DNA of 64,000 nt. It comes from Pseudomonadota bacterium. GTDB lineage: Bacteria > Pseudomonadota > Alphaproteobacteria > Sphingomonadales > Sphingomonadaceae. This document shows positions 51 through 44,232 of this stretch, one piece after another; position 1 is the stretch's first letter, and every line of letters begins with the position of its first letter. Location: positions 36,092 through 100,091 of the forward strand of contig JBCDIZ010000005.1 of assembly GCA_038748365.1 (NCBI GenBank), given 5' to 3'. A program made the position numbers and the translations under genes. The notes beneath the pieces were generated by a model that did no database searches, was not told the DNA's origin, and saw only the letters and a list, made by a program, of their open reading frames with translations.

Positions 51-1106
51 ATGAACATCGAGAATAGCCGGGAATATTATGGTCAGGTGCTAGGCGGATC
101 GGATGATCTGAAGACTGATGCCTGTGTTACTGCCGAGCGTCCCCCAGAGGCCATCATACGGGCGCTGGCCAATGTCCATGAAGAGGTAAAGTCGCGCTAT
201 TATGGCTGCGGCTTGATTGCGCCACAGCAGCTTGAAGGTGCGCGCATTCTCGATCTCGGTTCGGGCTCGGGTCAGGACGCTTATATTCTGGCACAGCTGG
301 TGGGTGAACAGGGCGAAGTTGTCGGCGTGGATACCACTCCAGAGCAACTGGCAGTCGCCAATGCCCATATTGACTGGCACGCAGAGCGCTTCGGTTATGC
401 CAGTCCGAATGTTCGGTTTATTGAGGGCGATATTGAGAAGCTTGACTCTCTTGATCTTGAACCGGGCAGCTTTGATGTCATTGTTTCCAATTGTGTGATC
501 AATCTGGTTGCCGATAAGGGCAAGGTCTTCGGCGACGCGCATCGGTTGCTAAAACTCGGCGGCGAAATGTATTTCTCCGATGTCTATTCTGACCGCAGGG
601 TGCCGGAGCATTTGCTCAATGATCCGGTGTTGCACGGTGAGTGTCTCTCCGGCGCACTCTATTGGGGAGATTTTTTGGCGCTGGCGAAAATCGCAGGTTT
701 TACCGATCCGCGACTGGTTAAAGACCGCCCCCTGGGCATTGGCGACCCTGCGGTTGCCGCCAAGTTGGATGGCATTAATTTCTTCTCCGCCACATATCGC
801 CTGTTCAAGCTTGATGGGCTTGAGCCTGAGTGTGAGGATTACGGCCAGGCTGTGATATATAAGGGCGGGATCAGCGGTGAAGAACGCGTTTTCGCGCTCG
901 ACAAGCATCATATGATTGAGCGGGGCAAGGTTTTTCCGGTGTGCGGCAATAGCTGGAAGATGCTCGCCGATACGCGTTTTGCGAAATATTTTGATTTTAT
1001 CGGCGATTTCTCAAAACATTATGGCGTATTTGAGGGCTGCGGCACGGGTATGCCGTTTAATATGCCAAGCGAGGGTGGTGAGACTGCTCCGGCAAGCTGT
1101 TGCTGA
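51..1106 (+). CDS. arsM: Arsenite S-adenosylmethionine methyltransferase (AS3MT-like long form)
   Basis: SAM motif ILDLGSGSG. Cys pattern matches AS3MT/ArsM: DAC25, YYGC53G, SNC148VINL, GEC198LSGAL. C-terminal CC. Window edge is only 50 bp upstream. Confidence 0.85.
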   Translation: MNIENSREYYGQVLGGSDDLKTDACVTAERPPEAIIRALANVHEEVKSRYYGCGLIAPQQLEGARILDLGSGSGQDAYILAQLVGEQGEVVGVDTTPEQLAVANAHIDWHAERFGYASPNVRFIEGDIEKLDSLDLEPGSFDVIVSNCVINLVADKGKVFGDAHRLLKLGGEMYFSDVYSDRRVPEHLLNDPVLHGECLSGALYWGDFLALAKIAGFTDPRLVKDRPLGIGDPAVAAKLDGINFFSATYRLFKLDGLEPECEDYGQAVIYKGGISGEERVFALDKHHMIERGKVFPVCGNSWKMLADTRFAKYFDFIGDFSKHYGVFEGCGTGMPFNMPSEGGETAPASCC

Positions 1107-1126
1107 GTAGCAAAGAGACTGCACCT

Positions 1127-2143
1127 ATGCGTGTTTTATTGACAGGGGCGACAGGGCTAGTCGGTGGTGCACTGGCCGGTGCTTTGCTGGATTCAGGTCA
1201 TCACATCGTTGGCGTGCTGCGCGGCGAGGGTCGTACTATGCTTGACATGGATGGGCAGGACCGGGCGGCTGAAATCACGCCTTTGCAGGGAGATGTTACC
1301 CAACCTAGTTTCGGTCTTACTGGACTTCCAGATGATATTGATTTGGTTATCCATTGTGCCGCGACCACTGACTTTACCGCCAGCGATGCGGTTTATGAGA
1401 CGGTGAATATTGGCGGTGCGCGCAATGCGGTCGCGCTGGCGCAGCAGTTAGACGCGGCTTTGCTGCATGTTTCCACGGCGTATGTTTGTGGTCGGGCCGA
1501 TGGTCCGGTTTCAGAGATGCCAGCCAATCCTGAAGGCGATTTCACCAATGGCTATGAGCGTTCCAAGGCCATCGCTGAAAGCCACGTGATGCAGGCGCGC
1601 AAACAGGGCCTGGTCGCCGCGATTGCTCGGCCGAGCATCATTGTCGGGCGCTTGTCAGATGGCGCTATTCCGCGACAGGATGATTTCTATCATCTGTTTC
1701 GCCTGTTCGGTTCTCCGCTTTTGCAGCGCGTCCCGGCAATTGATGGCGCGGCTTTCGCGATTGTTCCGCTCGATCATGTGGTTTCCGGCTTGATGGAAAT
1801 GGCCGAAAACATGGCGCAGTTTGATGGCGATGCGGTGCATCTGGTTGCTGATAAACCTTTTCCGCTTGCCGATATGCTGGATATTGTCGCGGAATATGCG
1901 CGCGCGTCTCCGGCGGAGATCGTTCATCCTGATACGTACGATGTTGACCAACTCGACCGCCGCAGCCTGATGGTGCATCGCAAGGTTGGGGCGCAATTTT
2001 TTGAGTATTTTGCCCGGGTGCCCCTGTTTGAAAGCCGTGTTCTTGCAGAGAAGGCCGGGATTATTGCACCGCATATCGATAAAGCAGCGCTGCGGCGGAT
2101 GGTGGACTATTGCCATCGCACGGGGTTTTTGGATTGGCGCTGA
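1127..2143 (+). CDS. Extended SDR / NAD_binding_4 (male-sterility-like) oxidoreductase
   Basis: TGATGLVG Rossmann motif, HCAA, HVSTAYV, YERSK catalytic motif, RPSIIVG. ATG at 1127 preferred over the TTG at 1100. Confidence 0.8.
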   Translation: MRVLLTGATGLVGGALAGALLDSGHHIVGVLRGEGRTMLDMDGQDRAAEITPLQGDVTQPSFGLTGLPDDIDLVIHCAATTDFTASDAVYETVNIGGARNAVALAQQLDAALLHVSTAYVCGRADGPVSEMPANPEGDFTNGYERSKAIAESHVMQARKQGLVAAIARPSIIVGRLSDGAIPRQDDFYHLFRLFGSPLLQRVPAIDGAAFAIVPLDHVVSGLMEMAENMAQFDGDAVHLVADKPFPLADMLDIVAEYARASPAEIVHPDTYDVDQLDRRSLMVHRKVGAQFFEYFARVPLFESRVLAEKAGIIAPHIDKAALRRMVDYCHRTGFLDWR

Positions 2144-2887
2144 TTACCGGATATCCGGGTAAATATCCCCCAGCTTTTTGCGCACCCCAAAGCTCCACAT
2201 AATCCCGATCTTGAGATAGAGATAATTGGCCTTGAGCGGGCCCCAATGGGCGATGCGGCGGTCTGAAGTAATCACCGGCTTGCGCGTCATTTTCAGCTTG
2301 CCGCGTGTTGCCATGCCAATGCACAGGTCCGCTTCTTCCATAATCGTCGCATCATCCGGGATGCCACCGACGGCAAGAAAATCCTCGCGGCGGAAGAACA
2401 TCGCATGATCGCCGAACAGCAGCCGCACCCCGCGCACGAACAGATGTGGATGGGTGACAATCGGATACCAGGTCTTGATCCAGTTATGCAGCGTCGTGCC
2501 CCAACGGGTCTTTTTGCCACGGATAATCGGCAGGAAAGTACCGAGCGATATGGTGCGATTGCTGAGCGTCTGGCGCACATGGGTGATGGCATCAGGCGGC
2601 AGGATGCTATCGGCATGCAGGACAAGGACAATCGGCCCTTCTGCCTCTTCGACACCATGGTTGATCTGTGGACCACGGCCTTTTTTGGGTGCGATAATGG
2701 CGCGGAAACCGGCGTCTTTTGCCAGTTGCACCGTGGCATCCTTGCTACCGCCATCGACAAGTAGCACCTCATCGGGCGGCGGGTCCATCGCTGCGATATT
2801 GGCTATGGTTGCAGGCAAGGCCTCTTCCTCCTGCCATGTCGGGATCAGGATGGTGACAGGCTCGCCTGTTGCTTTCTGGGCAGTCAT
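2144..2887 (-). CDS. GT2 family glycosyltransferase (TIGR04283-like)
   Basis: ILIPTWQEE, VDGGSKD, LHADS, FGDHAMF, EEADL, TSDRR motifs. ATG at 2887 overlaps the upstream TGA (ATGA). Confidence 0.8.
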   Translation of the reverse strand: MTAQKATGEPVTILIPTWQEEEALPATIANIAAMDPPPDEVLLVDGGSKDATVQLAKDAGFRAIIAPKKGRGPQINHGVEEAEGPIVLVLHADSILPPDAITHVRQTLSNRTISLGTFLPIIRGKKTRWGTTLHNWIKTWYPIVTHPHLFVRGVRLLFGDHAMFFRREDFLAVGGIPDDATIMEEADLCIGMATRGKLKMTRKPVITSDRRIAHWGPLKANYLYLKIGIMWSFGVRKKLGDIYPDIR

Positions 2888-3501
2888 GGCGGCAGGCTTT
2901 CGACAAGCGCAGGCCAGCGCGTCAGGTCTTCGGGGCGGTCGCAATCGGCCAGTGTCTCCAGCATCACCGGGGCAATAGCCATCGCCTCCAGCCGCGCCAA
3001 GGTTGTCGGCAGAACCTTATCGGTACTCCATGGCATATCGCGGAACAGATCGGGCAGCGGACGCACCATACCGATCAGATAATAACCGCCATCCTCTGCC
3101 GGGCCAATAACCACCTGATGCGTTTCTAACGCGACAACAGCTTTTTGGACAATTTCGACGGTCAGATCGGGTGTATCGGCACCAAAAAATATCTGAGGGC
3201 CCGTGCCGAGCGCCGCGAGCAGGCGATTGGTCAAATCGCCTTCAGGCTGCTCGGCATAATCGGGCGTATCGCCCAGCCATTCGCGAAAGGCCATTTCCTC
3301 TTCTCCTGCATAATGCGCCACCACCGGCTGTCCGCTGGCAATCAGCGTGGCGCAGGTCCGATGCGCCAAAGTACGATGCAGCGCTGCGGCACCTGTCTCT
3401 CCCAGTGCGGGTATCAGCCGTGTCTTGGCATAGCCGGGCACCGGATATTTGGCGAAGAGACGAAGCGTTGCAAATTTTTGATCAGTTGATGATGGCATCA
3501 T
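2884..3501 (-). CDS. DUF2064 / TIGR04282-type glycosyltransferase-like protein
   Basis: FAKYPVPGYAKTRL, Q-x-GDL, GADTPDL, GPAEDGGYYLIG, PWST, LADCDRPEDL. The listed 395-aa ORF is over-extended; the start is near ATG 3501. Confidence 0.8.
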   Translation of the reverse strand: MMPSSTDQKFATLRLFAKYPVPGYAKTRLIPALGETGAAALHRTLAHRTCATLIASGQPVVAHYAGEEEMAFREWLGDTPDYAEQPEGDLTNRLLAALGTGPQIFFGADTPDLTVEIVQKAVVALETHQVVIGPAEDGGYYLIGMVRPLPDLFRDMPWSTDKVLPTTLARLEAMAIAPVMLETLADCDRPEDLTRWPALVESLPP

Positions 3502-3531: not shown

Positions 3532-3678
3532 CCAATTCCTCCCCGGCACGGGGAGGTGGCACGCCGTAGCTTTAGCGAAGGCGTGACGGAGGGGGTTCTC
3601 CTCTCGCGCAGCGCCATGCGGACAGCCCCCTCCACCATGCTGCGCATGGTCCCCCTCCCCGTGCCGGGGAGGAATTGG
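3532..3678. repeat. REP/MITE-like palindromic element with 25-bp terminal inverted repeats
   Basis: CCAATTCCTCCCCGGCACGGGGAGG (3532-3556) and its exact reverse complement CCTCCCCGTGCCGGGGAGGAATTGG (3654-3678), with internal hairpins. Intergenic. Confidence 0.8.
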
Positions 3679-3750: not shown

Positions 3751-4383
3751 ATGTCCGAGATTGTCCTGTATGACTATTTCCGCTCGACCGCGGCCTATCG
3801 GGTGCGGCTGGCGCTCAATTTGAAGGGCGTGGACTATCGCACCGAATGGGTCAATCTCGTCGATGGTGATCAGCGCAGCGCCTCTTACACAGCGCGCAAT
3901 CCGCAGGGGCTGGTGCCGATGTTGCAGATTGATGGCCATGACCTCAGCCAGTCGCTGGCGATTATCGATTATCTTGATGCGCGCTTCCCCGCACCGCGCA
4001 TGCTCCCTGAAGACCCGGCCGCGCGGGCCAAAGTACTGGCCGATGCCATGGGGATCATCGCCGATATCCATCCGATCAACAATTTGCGCGTCTGGCAGTA
4101 TTTGAAAGACCCGTTCGGCCGTTCACAGGATGATGTGGTGCAATGGATGCATTATTGGATGACTTTGGGCTATACCGCGCTGGAACAGGCGGCGCCGGAG
4201 CAGGGCGTTTTTGGTGGCGAGACCCCGAACCTCACCGATATCTGCCTGACCGCGCAAATGTATAATGCCGAGCGTTTTGGCTTGCCTATGGAGGCGTTTC
4301 CCAAGCTGAGGCGTATTCATGCTGAGCTTGGCGAATTGGAAGCATTCAAAGCCGCTCACCCTGACAGGATTGCCACCGAATAA
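3751..4383 (+). CDS. maiA: Maleylacetoacetate isomerase (GST zeta)
   Basis: LYDYFRSTAAYRVR, NPQGLVP, QSLAIIDYLD, DIHPINNLRV. Located in the hppD/FAH neighbourhood. Confidence 0.92.
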   Translation: MSEIVLYDYFRSTAAYRVRLALNLKGVDYRTEWVNLVDGDQRSASYTARNPQGLVPMLQIDGHDLSQSLAIIDYLDARFPAPRMLPEDPAARAKVLADAMGIIADIHPINNLRVWQYLKDPFGRSQDDVVQWMHYWMTLGYTALEQAAPEQGVFGGETPNLTDICLTAQMYNAERFGLPMEAFPKLRRIHAELGELEAFKAAHPDRIATE

Positions 4384-6590
4384 TGTCTTTGCGTTTTTTG
4401 TTTTCTACTGCCTCGATATCCATTCTCGCATTGGCTGGGACACCTGCTGCAGCCATTGCACAGGATCAGCCAGACCCATGCCTGTTGATCGATTGCACCC
4501 CAGATGATGGCAATGAACAATCAGTCGAAGTTATCGATCCATCTACCATTACGTTGGAAAACATTACCGTTCTAGGTGCTCCGCTTGATGATCCGCTGGG
4601 CGATAAGGCCTATGCCGTCAGCGAAATAGGGCCGCGGGAATTGGCCAATGAAGCTAGCGGACGCATCGAAAATGCCTTGCGCAATGTGCCGGGCCTGCAG
4701 CAATTTCGTCGTTCGGATTCACGCTCGGCCAACCCGACCAGCCAGGGCGTAACCCTGCGCGGGCTCGGCGGCAACGCTGCCAGCCGCGCTTTGCTGACAC
4801 TGGATGGTGTGCCGCAGGCCGATCCCTTTGGCGGCTGGGTCAGCTTTCCAGGCTATGATGCAATGGCGATTGAGAATGTTCGCGTCCGCCGAGGCGGCGG
4901 CACAGGCAGCGATGGTGCTGGAGCCTTGGCTGGGACGATCGAGTTACGAACAAGAACACTACCAAACCCTGATCTGTTAAATGATTTGCCAATGCCTTCG
5001 AGGGAAATTGAGGGAACTTTGCGCTATGGCAGCCGCGACAGCTTGGAAGCCAATATCGCCGCCGAGCAGAAGCTGGGAACCGGCGGGCTGACCTTCTCAG
5101 CGCAATATGCGCGCGGCGATGGCTTTATCCCGGTGATTGAGGAACAGCGCGGCAGCGTTGATCGTCCGGCGGAGTACCAGCAATATGGCTTTGGCGCGCG
5201 TTTTGTCGCGCCATTGAGCGACGATACCGAGATACAGGCCAATATCCGCGCCTATAGCGATGAGCGCGAGCGCGGCTTTGCCTTTAGCGACAACCGCAAT
5301 GATGGCGCCGATGCGTCGGTACGGCTGGTGTCGCGCGGGCGTTGGCAATGGGAGGCGCTGGCCTATCTGCAGTTGCGCGAATTTCAGACCAGCTTTGGTG
5401 CTGTCGAGGCGGAGCGCAATTCTGTGCGGCAGGTGCTTGATCAGTTTAACGTGCCTTCGACGGGGCTGGGCGCAAAGTTCGAGATCCGCCCGCCAGTAGG
5501 CGACAATGCCGAGCTGCGTATAGGCGGCGATTGGCGGCGCACTGTCGGTGAGACGAATGAGCGCTTCTTCTTCCAAAATGCTGCGCCCTTGCGCGGGCGC
5601 AATGCCGGTGGGCGCACCGATACGCTGGGCGGCTATGTTGAGGCGAGTTGGCAGGTGACGCCGACATTTTTGCTCACCGGCGGCGGGCGACTGGATTATT
5701 GGTCGATTGCCAATGGTTTCCGTCGCGAATTTGAACTGGCGCCTGATATTGCCGGGCAGATTCGCAGTGATGACAGCTTTGCCGATCGTGATGGCATTGA
5801 AGGCACGGGGCGGATCGGCTTTGCCTATAATGCCGCCAGCCTGTTGACGCTGCGCGGTGCGGCCTATCTTGGCTGGCGCTTGCCGACGCTGAACGAGCTG
5901 TACCGGCCTTTCCGCGTTGGCGCCGATGCCACTGCCGCCAATGAATTGCTCGAACCCGAGCGTTTGCGCGGGGTGGAATTGGGTCTCGACTGGGAAATCT
6001 ATACGCTGCGGTTCAGCGGCACGGTGTTCTATAACCAGCTCGACAATGCCATTGCCAATGTGACGCTCGATAGCGGCCCCGGCCTGTTCCCCGGTGTCGG
6101 CTTTGTCTCAGGGGCAGGGGTGTTTCGCCAGCGCCAGAATCTGGATGCTGTCGATGCGTTGGGTGTCGAGATTGATGCCGCGATTGATATTGGCGCGTTC
6201 AGCATGTCGGTGGGTTACGCTTATGTCGATAGCGAAGTCGCGGGTAATGCCGGCGCGCAGGCGGCGATTGACGGGCTGCGTCCGGCGCAGGTGCCGCAGC
6301 ATTTTGCCAATGCCGCGCTCGACTGGCAGCCGCGCCGCAGCGATATCAGCGCCGGCGTCACGCTGCGCTATATTGGCAGCCAGTTTGAGGACGACAGCAA
6401 TACGCGCCTGCTTGATGATGCCTTCACCCTCGATGCGCGCGCCAGCTATGGTCTGAGCGATACGCTGATGCTGGAGGGCTGGGTGGAAAATCTTTTCGAT
6501 GCAGAAGTGCAGGCGGGGATCAGCGGTGCAGGTGTGGTCGAACGCGCCCGACCGCAAACCTTCTGGCTCGGCCTGAATGTGCGGCTGTGA
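4383..6590 (+). CDS. TonB-dependent receptor
   Basis: Signal peptide, plug motif (LRGLGGNAASRALLTLDGVP), beta-strand alternation, C-terminal ENLFD...FWLGLNVRL. TAATG overlap with maiA. Confidence 0.9.
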   Translation: MSLRFLFSTASISILALAGTPAAAIAQDQPDPCLLIDCTPDDGNEQSVEVIDPSTITLENITVLGAPLDDPLGDKAYAVSEIGPRELANEASGRIENALRNVPGLQQFRRSDSRSANPTSQGVTLRGLGGNAASRALLTLDGVPQADPFGGWVSFPGYDAMAIENVRVRRGGGTGSDGAGALAGTIELRTRTLPNPDLLNDLPMPSREIEGTLRYGSRDSLEANIAAEQKLGTGGLTFSAQYARGDGFIPVIEEQRGSVDRPAEYQQYGFGARFVAPLSDDTEIQANIRAYSDERERGFAFSDNRNDGADASVRLVSRGRWQWEALAYLQLREFQTSFGAVEAERNSVRQVLDQFNVPSTGLGAKFEIRPPVGDNAELRIGGDWRRTVGETNERFFFQNAAPLRGRNAGGRTDTLGGYVEASWQVTPTFLLTGGGRLDYWSIANGFRREFELAPDIAGQIRSDDSFADRDGIEGTGRIGFAYNAASLLTLRGAAYLGWRLPTLNELYRPFRVGADATAANELLEPERLRGVELGLDWEIYTLRFSGTVFYNQLDNAIANVTLDSGPGLFPGVGFVSGAGVFRQRQNLDAVDALGVEIDAAIDIGAFSMSVGYAYVDSEVAGNAGAQAAIDGLRPAQVPQHFANAALDWQPRRSDISAGVTLRYIGSQFEDDSNTRLLDDAFTLDARASYGLSDTLMLEGWVENLFDAEVQAGISGAGVVERARPQTFWLGLNVRL

Positions 6591-7048
6591 TGTCTGAGAG
6601 TAACCGCAAAAGGCTGGCGGATTTTCTGCCCTATCAGCTTTCGATCACCACCAATGCGGTCAGCAATCTCATCGCCGAGGAATATCGCAGCCGCTTTGGC
6701 CTTAAAATCACCGAGTGGCGGATAATGGCGGTGCTGGGCGATCTGGAACAGGTGACACAGCGCGAACTGGTGGCCGTCACCCGGATGGACAAGGTCGCGG
6801 TCAATCGTGCCTGCAAGGCTCTGGTCGAGCGCAAGCTGATCGCCCGCGCGCCCCATGCCAGCGATGGCCGCTCGCACCAGCTGGCGCTAACGGTGACGGG
6901 TGCAGAGCTTTATGGCGAAATCATGCCGCTGGCCGAGGATATGGAACGACGGATTTTCGCGGTGCTTTCGGCGGAAGAGGAAGCACAGATGCGCGATATG
7001 CTGACCCGCCTGCGTGAGGCGAGCGATGCTTTGCGGGGTGAGGAATAG
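6587..7048 (+). CDS. MarR family transcriptional regulator
   Basis: FLPYQLS, EWRIMAVL, DKVAVNRA, DGRS winged-helix motifs. Overlaps the TBDR stop. Confidence 0.9.
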   Translation: MMSESNRKRLADFLPYQLSITTNAVSNLIAEEYRSRFGLKITEWRIMAVLGDLEQVTQRELVAVTRMDKVAVNRACKALVERKLIARAPHASDGRSHQLALTVTGAELYGEIMPLAEDMERRIFAVLSAEEEAQMRDMLTRLREASDALRGEE

Positions 7049-43210: not shown

Positions 43211-44232
43211 GCGGGGCATTGCAAAAGGCGGCCGATTTCATGTTCGGCTCGGGTACGGCCTTTGTGCTGATCGGCGCTATAATCGGGGGTTCGCTTATCG
43301 GAATCGCGCTGCCCGGGGCAGGCGACATGCTCTCCGGCCAGATTGATTATACCATCTTGCTGCTGGTCTTCCTGTTGCTGTTTGAAGTGCGGGTGCAGAA
43401 TGTGCTGTCCAGCCTCAACCGCATACCGTTTCTCGCTGCTACCCTGATTGCCAATTTTATCATCATCCCGGCGCTCGGTTTTGGCCTTGCCTCGGCTTTT
43501 ATGTTCGCGCATCCGCTGTTTTTTATCGGCCTTGTTATCTATTTCATGGCGCCGTGCACCGACTGGTTTTTAGGCTTCACCCGGCTGGCAAAGGGCAACA
43601 CGGCTTTGGGCGCGGCGCTTTTGCCGATCAATATGATCGTCCAGCTTCTGCTCTATCCGGTCTATCTGCACCTATTCGGCATAGACGCGATAGAAACCGG
43701 CGCAGGCGATATCGCGCAAACGCTGTGGCAATGGTTTCTGGTTCCGCTTCTCGCGGCACTGATCCTGCGCTTTGTTGCGGAACGGATCTTGCGCGAAGAT
43801 CAAATGCAATTCGTGCAAAATCTGGTGGCGCTGATTGTTCCGCTTTTATTGGCGCTTCTCGTTGGGCAGATATTTGCTGCCAATATTGGCACCTTAATCT
43901 CCAATATCGCGATTTTCCCGCTGATCCTCTGTGCCATCTTTCTGTTCTTTGTCCTGACTTTCTTGCTAAGCGAAGCGATCGCGAAAATCATGAAGCTGAG
44001 CTATGAAGACCGCGTATTGATGACAATGACCACCGCAGCACGCAATGCGCCGCTCATGCTGGCTGTCACCATGGTGGTCATTCCTGACCAGCCGGTTGTT
44101 TATGCCGCGATCATTATCGGCATGCTGGTCGAGTTTCCGCATCTGGTGGCTTTGAAAGTGATTCTGGAACGCCGCCGTGCTTTGGGTGAAGAAGGGGTGA
44201 CGGAGCCACATAGGAATCCTCTGGCCAGATAA
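43204..44232 (+). CDS. Acr3/SBF (BART superfamily) transporter
   Basis: About 10 TM helices, APCTDW..FT.LAKGN, ARNAPL, GMLVEFP. ATG 43204 overlaps the upstream stop. Confidence 0.8.
   Translation: MLSGALQKAADFMFGSGTAFVLIGAIIGGSLIGIALPGAGDMLSGQIDYTILLLVFLLLFEVRVQNVLSSLNRIPFLAATLIANFIIIPALGFGLASAFMFAHPLFFIGLVIYFMAPCTDWFLGFTRLAKGNTALGAALLPINMIVQLLLYPVYLHLFGIDAIETGAGDIAQTLWQWFLVPLLAALILRFVAERILREDQMQFVQNLVALIVPLLLALLVGQIFAANIGTLISNIAIFPLILCAIFLFFVLTFLLSEAIAKIMKLSYEDRVLMTMTTAARNAPLMLAVTMVVIPDQPVVYAAIIIGMLVEFPHLVALKVILERRRALGEEGVTEPHRNPLAR

Follow-up and report, generated by a model that had tools for sequence, protein, structure and literature searches.

The genome of a marine sphingomonad holds a conserved cluster of six or more genes whose probable role is to convert arsenic to adenosine-derived compounds, for example arsenosugars, with a radical SAM enzyme replacing ArsS. 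The window (the whole stretch of DNA that was analysed, 64,000 nucleotides long) holds four of these genes, which form the right-hand half of the cluster; the left-hand half lies upstream of the window. In Synechocystis, ArsM and ArsS (TIGR04167) produce 5'-deoxy-5'-dimethylarsinoyl-adenosine, and TIGR04282 and TIGR04283 are NCBIfam 'arsenosugar' transferases. In the sea and in seafood, arsenosugars and arsenolipids rank among the major arsenic species. To our knowledge, enzymes have been assigned to no more than the first two steps of their synthesis (ArsM and ArsS), and in cyanobacteria alone.

Layout and conservation of the cluster

An arsM and an SDR gene facing a coupled pair of TIGR04282- and TIGR04283-like genes had been reported in an earlier note on this DNA, and all four genes were confirmed at their positions (Table 1). 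The SDR starts with the ATG at 1127 (MRVLLTGATG), 20 bp past the ArsM stop, and its stop codon adjoins that of GT2 with zero spacer. The GT2 start lies on the DUF2064 stop in an ATGA overlap at 2884-2887, so that the pair is translationally coupled. The description of these genes as a four-gene unit was not borne out: the locus has at least six or seven genes, and one of these, encoding a radical SAM enzyme, lies 2.9 kb before window position 1. Promoter and terminator scans and an Rfam search returned nothing above background. A minus-strand ORF past the stop of the radical SAM gene (L011:9373-10140) was set aside as an apparent antisense artefact; on the plus strand there, the ORF had a weak NUDIX match only and is not the MTA phosphorylase found in relatives.

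Table 1. Genes of the cluster and the MTA phosphorylase gene of the source genome (G000). Positions without a contig name are those of the window.
Feature	Position	Strand	Details
ArsM, AS3MT-type arsenite S-adenosylmethionine methyltransferase	51..1106	+	351 aa; PDB phmmer and four Cys
Extended SDR, terminal thioester-reductase / fatty-acyl-reductase type (NAD_binding_4)	1127..2143	+	338 aa; Pfam PF07993
GT2 glycosyltransferase, TIGR04283-like	2144..2887	-	247 aa; TIGR04283 and Pfam Glycos_transf_2
DUF2064 / TIGR04282, predicted nucleotidyltransferase	2884..3501	-	205 aa; TIGR04282 and fold model
MerA-like FAD disulfide oxidoreductase	G000 contig C5:34305-35864	-	just upstream of window
Periplasmic rhodanese	G000 contig C5:33538-34158	-	just upstream of window
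Type-A ArsS-like radical SAM enzyme	G000 contig C5:32380-33237	-	start probably ATA at C5:33360
MTA phosphorylase	C7:118162-119025		unlinked to cluster in source genome

The same gene order and orientation were found in Parasphingorhabdus, Sphingorhabdus, Parerythrobacter and several further genomes, and synteny of the block extends over several families of sphingomonads. Parasphingorhabdus sp. DH2-15 and Alterisphingorhabdus coralli are examples of cultivable relatives with this cluster. The arrangement of DUF2064-GT2 facing SDR-ArsM, and diverging into the genes for the flavoprotein and the radical SAM enzyme, is kept in L013, L014, L016, L018, L019, L040 and L068. Because order and orientation recur in several genera, comparison of the sequences indicates that the arrangement is not chance. 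In a sample of 74 same-family genomes, the radical SAM and DUF2064 genes co-occurred in exactly the same 21.

ArsM, a remote ArsS homologue and their partners

Over nearly its full length, the window ArsM matched the solved ArsM structures 5evj (E = 1.6e-101 over residues 7-333, PDB phmmer) and CmArsM (4fr0/4kw7; E = 2.9e-80). All four expected cysteines, catalytic and As-binding, are present, as had been noted before: C25, C53, C148 and C198 align to C44, C72, C174 and C224 of CmArsM. Scores against PRK11873 (154.3 bits, cut-off 263) and NF038099 AsSugarArsM (81.4 bits, cut-off 400) fell below threshold, and these two models describe ArsM subfamilies other than this one. Its orthologues in the syntenic loci are 72-87% identical. 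These similarities identify the protein as an AS3MT-type ArsM, predicted to methylate As(III).

We then asked what stands in the place of ArsS. In a search of the whole genome (completeness 99.99%), TIGR04167 was nowhere over its cut-off, the best match reaching 66.3 bits against 300 in an alignment confined to the model's N-terminal half, and canonical ArsS was rejected. To the question raised earlier, whether arsS lies upstream of position 1 or elsewhere in the genome, the reply is strictly speaking no; however, the upstream type-A radical SAM enzyme aligned with true ArsS over 267 columns at 23% identity (hhalign probability 98.75%, E = 1.5e-16). The enzyme has a conserved N-terminal extension, a CX3CX2C motif (CNLACASC) and a Cys-rich tail, HCARFCVLGGASCSG, where that of ArsS is HCYGCTAGQGSSCGG. 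The C-terminal motif reads HCxxxCxxGGASC, compared with HCxGCTAGxGSSC in ArsS; the spacing from first to last Cys of this triad is equal in the two and the middle Cys is one residue off. By its sequence, then, the type-A enzyme is a remote full-length homologue of ArsS. It resembles cyanobacterial ArsS in combining CX3CX2C with a C-terminal H-C...C...G-x-S-C motif, and differs in being only ~23% identical and in forming a separate clade (support 100/100). The family comprises 185 clusters at 50% identity (E <= 1e-30) and is named in no database, and a literature search found no paper that describes the subtype. Natural fusions join members of the family to DUF2064 (P0128 and P0268), to an AS3MT-type ArsM 44% identical to the window ArsM (P0277), and to a phosphoesterase or an HD nucleotidase.

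The chemistry of ArsS and ArsL and the binding of As(III) by a Cys triad have been described (PMC13598754; bioRxiv 10.1101/2024.02.01.577332). The ArsL/ArsM arsinothricin pathway of Burkholderia gladioli also pairs an As-C-forming radical SAM enzyme with ArsM, and the C-terminal Cys triad of ArsL binds As(III). However, ArsL moves a 3-amino-3-carboxypropyl group and ends in RCCLKC, and the arsinothricin pathway has no counterpart of the sphingomonad transferase pair. No ArsL model was among the best 25 of the 27 NCBIfam families matching the type-A enzyme.

These data bear on the possibility that ArsM merely detoxifies arsenite to MMA, DMA or TMAO, its adjacency to the transferase pair being functionally meaningless. 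ArsM alone suffices for methylation in characterised systems, and the neighbouring genes have no known product. Against this, synteny is kept in more than one genus and family, and among the syntenic loci a second radical SAM subtype stands directly beside ArsM; ArsM is fused to a radical SAM enzyme in P0277, and every ArsM-bearing genome of the same-family sample (14 of 14) also had both the radical SAM gene and DUF2064. We consider detoxification alone improbable.

The transferase pair conformed to the families named in the earlier note in part. DUF2064 scored 171.8 bits against TIGR04282, over the cut-off of 134; for GT2, TIGR04283 was the best match yet fell just below its cut-off (164.1 bits against 182), with the next NCBIfam family at 54 bits, a gap of 110 bits. 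The orthologous GT2 slot in L032 scored 186 bits against TIGR04283, and the window GT2 matched Pfam Glycos_transf_2 at 4e-22. The reading of TIGR04282 as a glycosyltransferase found no support, since the fold looks like that of a nucleotidyltransferase. DUF2064 matched PDB entry 3cgx at 2.2e-19, and a Foldseek search of the PDB with its AlphaFold model (pLDDT 94.9) returned 3cgx at the top, followed by CofC/FbiD, KdsB, IspD, GlmU and RmlA. DUF2064 shares with the CofC/FbiD guanylyltransferases and with RmlA, GlmU, KdsB and IspD both the modelled fold and the N-terminal P-x-x-G-x-x-K-x-R signature, but only 10-20% identity. Judging from this model, DUF2064 looks like a nucleotidyltransferase, and we predict that it acts as one. 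A literature search for DUF2064 gave no matches.

The SDR matched Pfam NAD_binding_4 (PF07993) at 2e-35 and reached 124.7 bits against the thioester reductase domain model TIGR01746 (cut-off 213). When its family profile was compared with the PDB, the MxaA R-domain ranked highest (3.6e-33), with R-domains of PKS/NRPS, fatty acyl-CoA reductase and carboxylic acid reductase next and NDP-sugar enzymes far behind. T117, Y143 and K147, the putative catalytic T/Y/K triad, are invariant. The flavoprotein is of the disulfide reductase type, with a CxxxxC predicted to be redox-active (GGDCLNTGCVPSK), and scored 341 bits against TIGR02053 (cut-off 454). It has neither a C-terminal Cys pair nor an NmerA domain, and the absence of the former led us to reject mercuric reductase MerA. 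The upstream rhodanese, which has a signal peptide, shares only 24% identity with the one linked to the cluster in L068 and was therefore treated as loosely associated.

Proposed pathway and the identity of the substrate

The gene logic of ArsM, an ArsS-like enzyme and a transferase pair is present, because the radical SAM enzyme is a remote ArsS homologue, is syntenic with arsM and is fused to DUF2064 or ArsM elsewhere. The cluster shares with the cyanobacterial ArsM/ArsS route an arsenite-type methyltransferase, the pair of DUF2064 and GT2 and, recurrently, a MerA-like flavoprotein; it differs in that its ArsM is of the eukaryote-like AS3MT type rather than the NF038099 type, and in having the extra thioester-reductase-type SDR. 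Canonical ArsS loci in other Pseudomonadota have the same GT2-DUF2064 pair and the same flavoprotein, and one of them, L062, adds an AS3MT-type ArsM and has an MTA phosphorylase gene beside ArsS. Of the 22 same-family genomes with a radical SAM gene (21 relatives and the source genome), 9 also have an MTA phosphorylase gene at most about 1 kb away from it; in genus g47, which has the second subtype, the distance is within 1.5 kb in 10 of the 12 genomes.

From synteny, the fusions, MTA phosphorylase adjacency and the DUF2064 fold, we infer a chain of adenosylation, phosphorolysis, NDP-activation and glycosyl transfer. ArsM would convert As(III) to methyl-As(III) and dimethyl-As(III), and the ArsS-like enzyme would transfer the 5'-deoxyadenosyl group of SAM to a trivalent arsenical, as in ArsS, with its C-terminal Cys triad as the putative arsenic holder. 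MTA phosphorylase would remove adenine by phosphorolysis to give 5-arsinoyl-ribose-1-phosphate. DUF2064 would then use an NTP to form the NDP-sugar or, alternatively, activate a phosphorylated aglycone, and an inverting GT2 would pass the sugar to an acceptor, yielding a beta-riboside. The flavoprotein may keep the arsenical or enzyme thiols reduced, and the SDR may serve in the synthesis or modification of the aglycone, which could be a fatty aldehyde or alcohol. A similar logic operates in the HpnH/HpnG hopanoid side-chain pathway, where 5'-deoxyadenosyl comes from a radical SAM enzyme, a phosphorylase of the PNP_UDP family then splits off adenine, and glycosyltransferases follow; however, the matches to HpnH (33 bits) and HpnG (23 bits) were low, the sphingomonad phosphorylase is an ordinary MTA phosphorylase, and the substrate in the sphingomonad cluster is not a hopene. 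We give about even chances to the proposal that the cluster makes an adenosine-derived organoarsenical by way of ArsM, the ArsS-like enzyme, MTA phosphorylase, DUF2064 and GT2.

Several observations count against this proposal. MTA phosphorylase could merely salvage 5'-deoxyadenosine, NDP-ribofuranose donors are unusual, and it is hard to see what a reductase-type SDR would do in arsenosugar chemistry. Neither an arsenic-responsive regulator nor a gene for ars efflux is linked to the cluster. The earlier observation that classical ars genes are absent beside the locus holds, and a classical ars operon was rejected: the whole genome has no ArsB, ArsH or Acr3 over cut-off, and the sole ArsC, of the Grx type, lies on another contig (C8) beside an unrelated hydrolase.

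The arsenosugar-type pathway first suggested for this DNA stands as far as its gene logic goes, whereas arsenic as the substrate is insecure, because AS3MT-type ArsM is missing genome-wide from 7 of the 21 cluster-bearing genomes of the same family. Four such loci (L022, L023, L026 and L027) have rSAM-FADox-SDR-GT2-DUF2064 intact and branch in the tree in between relatives that do have ArsM. The core of ArsS-like enzyme, DUF2064, GT2, flavoprotein and SDR might instead make an arsenic-free product, for example a 5'-deoxyadenosyl-derived S- or C-bearing sugar for the cell envelope, with ArsM an optional add-on in some lineages. Consistent with such a product, a rhodanese recurs near the cluster (NF045521 'rhoda_near_glyco', 97 bits in L068), the flavoprotein is a CxxxxC disulfide reductase, and the radical SAM subtype of the cluster stands alone, in a different genus, beside metZ-apaG, genes of sulfur and methionine metabolism, in a genome without ArsM. 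In relatives, the cluster also borders genes for a polyprenyl-phosphate-type GT2, a large membrane protein, DUF547 proteins and DedA. However, P0277 joins an AS3MT-type ArsM physically to this very radical SAM family, ArsS, an arsenic enzyme characterised by experiment, fills the same slot in other bacteria, and the C-terminal Cys triad is common to both enzymes; genomes without ArsM could use As(III) directly or import dimethylarsenate. We regard an arsenic-free product as possible, if rather unlikely.

A cluster that handles selenium and makes a selenosugar-like product seems very improbable. TIGR04167, TIGR04282 and TIGR04283 have a historical link to selenoproteins, their names recall selenium, and rhodanese can carry selenium. 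This reading was marked down because no SelD was found over its cut-off in the genome (best 49.8 bits against 125); moreover, the cluster genes have no selenocysteine codon and the methyltransferase is of the arsenic type.

Possible implications for arsenic biology in marine heterotrophs

Returning to an arsenic-based pathway, a more specific version seems to us doubtful but worth setting out: the type-A radical SAM enzyme, ordinary MTA phosphorylase, DUF2064 nucleotidyltransferase and TIGR04283 GT2 may together carry out the late steps of arsenosugar and arsenolipid synthesis through NDP-activated 5-arsinoyl-ribose. Lipid or envelope acceptors would receive the product in heterotrophic marine alphaproteobacteria, and in strains without ArsM the starting material would be As(III) or dimethylarsenate of phytoplankton. 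The neighbours and fusions point to MTA phosphorylase, the DUF2064 nucleotidyltransferase and GT2 as candidates for the missing late steps, and the sister clusters without ArsM provide a natural control on arsenic as the substrate. Collectively, these data indicate that common marine heterotrophs carry the ArsM/ArsS gene logic with a different radical enzyme.

Gene content and order of the arsM cluster

The earlier note had described a four-gene locus in a sphingomonad-like organism, with arsM and an SDR gene facing a GT2 and a DUF2064 gene. Coordinates and family matches held for all four. The window covers C5:36092-100091 of a 3.14-Mb genome (completeness 99.99%), and the sphingomonad-like assignment was right, the closest named relatives being Alterisphingorhabdus coralli (one cluster protein is 88% identical) and species of Parasphingorhabdus and Sphingorhabdus. 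The cluster extends beyond these four genes: three further genes, on the minus strand and divergent from arsM, precede window position 1.

Features of the cluster and related sites in the genome (C5, C7 and C18 are contigs)
Feature	Coordinates	Strand	Remarks
ArsM	window 51-1106	+	matches solved ArsM structures
SDR	window 1127-2143	+	NAD_binding_4 protein
GT2	window 2144-2887	-	TIGR04283 by far best match
DUF2064	window 2884-3501	-	TIGR04282, 171.8 against cut-off 134
Class-I pyridine-nucleotide disulfide oxidoreductase	C5:34305-35864	-	CxxxxC; nearest PDB relative MerA core
Rhodanese	C5:33538-34158	-	signal peptide
Radical SAM gene	C5:32380-33237	-	
Radical SAM N-terminal stretch	C5:33238-33360 (L011:11239-11361)	-	upstream of window
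MTA phosphorylase	C7:118162-119025		single copy, contig other than the cluster's
Inverted arms	window 3532-3678		DUF2064-maiA intergenic
maiA, TonB-dependent receptor, MarR regulator	window 3751-7048		maiA: TIGR01262, 231 bits
Acr3-like match	window 43291-44157		TIGR00832, 76 bits against cut-off 282.8
DUF547, GT2, membrane protein, DUF547	C18:9995-14054 (L069:4995-9054)		

ArsM matched the Chlamydomonas (5evj, E 1.6e-101) and Cyanidioschyzon (E 2.9e-80) structures, and its four expected cysteines, C25, C53, C148 and C198, line up with C44, C72, C174 and C224 of CmArsM, as claimed. It fell below the cut-offs of the NCBIfam ArsM models because these describe other subfamilies. GT2 scored 164.1 against TIGR04283, slightly below the cut-off of 182. 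The DUF2064 and GT2 genes share an ATGA overlap, and the stop codons of SDR and GT2 adjoin directly. The flavoprotein was considered as a MerA and rejected, as it is nearest to the MerA core but lacks the MerA C-terminal cysteine pair. The radical SAM protein has a conserved N-terminal stretch of 41 residues (SPFALAEKQPLDPAKFRDP...), whose coding sequence lies 5' of the first ATG and has no in-frame ATG, GTG or TTG. An ATA codon follows a GGAGAG Shine-Dalgarno by 6 nt, which points to a rare ATA start and a protein of 326 aa.

Several relatives share the arrangement in which DUF2064-GT2 faces SDR-ArsM and flavoprotein-radical SAM diverges from the latter: Parasphingorhabdus sp. DH2-15, Sphingorhabdus sp. 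Alg239-R122, Parerythrobacter aurantius, two uncultured Sphingomonadaceae, genome G110 and one alphaproteobacterial MAG. In an Erythrobacteraceae genome without the SDR (L015), the radical SAM gene adjoins arsM directly. The downstream maiA-receptor pair also sits beside DUF2064 in loci L012, L013, L014, L016 and L040. Between DUF2064 and maiA, two inverted 28-nt arms (96% complementary, 91 nt apart) belong to a REP/MITE-like element of ~65 bp, with similar copies, 76-97% identical, at ~28 other genome sites.

A radical SAM enzyme related to ArsS

The arsS gene (TIGR04167, cut-off 300) that the earlier note had proposed to look for was not found: across the whole genome no gene exceeded 66 bits, the score of the upstream radical SAM protein. 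We compared a profile of reference ArsS sequences, from other Pseudomonadota and all above the TIGR04167 cut-off, with that of the family of this protein (type A). The two aligned by hhalign over 267 columns, nearly the whole length (probability 98.75%, E 1.5e-16, 23% identity), including the C-terminal tails (HCxGCTAGxGSSCGG in ArsS, HCxxxCxLGGASCSG in type A). By profile alignment, the enzyme is thus a remote ArsS homologue. In other sphingomonad families a second subtype, type B (~35% identity to the present enzyme, tail HHRCYSCFAYGxSCSE), directly adjoins AS3MT-type arsM; it, too, falls outside TIGR04167 (41.6 bits). In a maximum-likelihood tree ArsS split from types A and B at 100/100 support, and type B formed its own clade (100/100). 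Type A is a large family, with >8000 matched proteins, the best 120 of which bear generic names only, and 185 clusters at 50% identity (E <= 1e-30); our literature search found no paper describing the subtype.

Linkage of the cluster genes

In a sample of 74 same-family genomes, the 21 that carry the radical SAM gene are exactly those that carry DUF2064; ArsM is present in 14 of these 21 and in none of the rest, a pattern of co-occurrence among kin rather than a statistical test. Loci with canonical ArsS carry GT2-DUF2064 (L058, L059, L061, L062, L063), the MerA-like flavoprotein (L062, L065-L067) and, in L062, an AS3MT-type ArsM with 62% identity to that of the present genome; the companion module therefore recurs with either radical SAM type. 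Natural fusions join DUF2064 to a type-A domain (P0128, P0268) and AS3MT-type ArsM to a type-B-like domain (P0277, whose ArsM part has 44% identity and retains the cysteine motifs). Other radical SAM fusions carry a metallophosphoesterase (P0129, P0130) or an HD 5'-nucleotidase-like domain (P0132).

MTA phosphorylase is a further neighbor. Its gene is convergent with the radical SAM gene and no more than ~1 kb away in 9 of the 22 same-family genomes bearing the latter (21 relatives and the present genome). Of 12 genus g47 genomes, 10 have it at most 1.5 kb away, and in nine of these it is co-directional with the type-B gene at a distance of ~20 bp. MTA phosphorylase also adjoins canonical ArsS in L062 and exceeds the NF006492 cut-off in L068, a locus with the full gene order.

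The confident DUF2064 model (pLDDT 94.9) lies nearest to family member 3cgx, then to CofC/FbiD guanylyltransferases, KdsB, IspD, GlmU and RmlA, so its predicted fold is that of a nucleotidyltransferase, not a glycosyltransferase. SDR is closest to terminal thioester, fatty acyl-CoA and carboxylic acid reductases (family profile: MxaA 3.6e-33, NDP-sugar enzymes ~45 bits).

Candidate pathway and its substrate

We propose that ArsM would yield trivalent methylarsenicals and that the ArsS-like enzyme would adenosylate the arsenic, by analogy with the chemistry shown for ArsS (PMC13598754); in ArsL a cysteine triad holds As(III) (bioRxiv 10.1101/2024.02.01.577332). MTA phosphorylase would cut off adenine, leaving an alpha-ribose-1-phosphate derivative, from which DUF2064 would produce an NDP-sugar; alternatively, DUF2064 would activate a phosphorylated aglycone in CofC-type fashion. 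The inverting GT2 would then form a beta-riboside, and natural arsenosugars have the same configuration. A possible role of the flavoprotein is to hold arsenicals or enzyme thiols in the reduced state. At the weakest step of the model, SDR may provide a fatty aldehyde or alcohol as aglycone, given its nearest relatives.

Cluster neighbors in relatives include DUF547 genes, a DedA/VTT protein, a fatty-acid hydroxylase and a polyprenyl-phosphate-type GT2 with a large membrane protein fused to or following it. A module of DUF547, polyprenyl-phosphate-sugar-synthase-like GT2, 494-aa membrane protein and DUF547 sits beside the ars-type cluster in L015, L024, L032, L033 and L068. It is kept in the present genome, ~5 kb from metZ-apaG, which hints at a sugar on a lipid carrier delivered to the envelope.

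There is room for a core pathway of radical SAM enzyme, flavoprotein, SDR, GT2 and DUF2064 that does not act on arsenic. Loci L022, L023, L026 and L027 keep these five genes intact with no ArsM in the cluster or anywhere in their genomes (E <= 1e-20), and interleave with ArsM-bearing sisters in the tree, although such strains may begin from As(III) or imported dimethylarsenate. Genus g59 and two other lineages have the type-A gene by itself upstream of metZ-apaG, and ArsM is absent from most of these genomes. A rhodanese is repeatedly near the cluster. In four other sphingomonad genomes with the type-A gene outside the cluster (L029, L030, L031, L041), it is directly upstream of metZ, of the O-succinylhomoserine sulfhydrylase family, and apaG. 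Selenium as the substrate is unlikely, since the genome has no SelD above cut-off.

The gene observation is thus confirmed and the arsenosugar-type reading partly supported. Arsenosugars already figure in the NCBIfam names of TIGR04282 and TIGR04283, and both ArsM and ArsS have been characterized; what is new is an unnamed ArsS-like subtype in place of ArsS, together with an AS3MT-type ArsM, an extra reductase and concrete candidates for the late steps. The only Acr3-like match in the genome is atypical. Because the whole genome holds no ArsB, ArsH or Acr3 above cut-off, this cluster may be the main arsenic-handling route of the organism.
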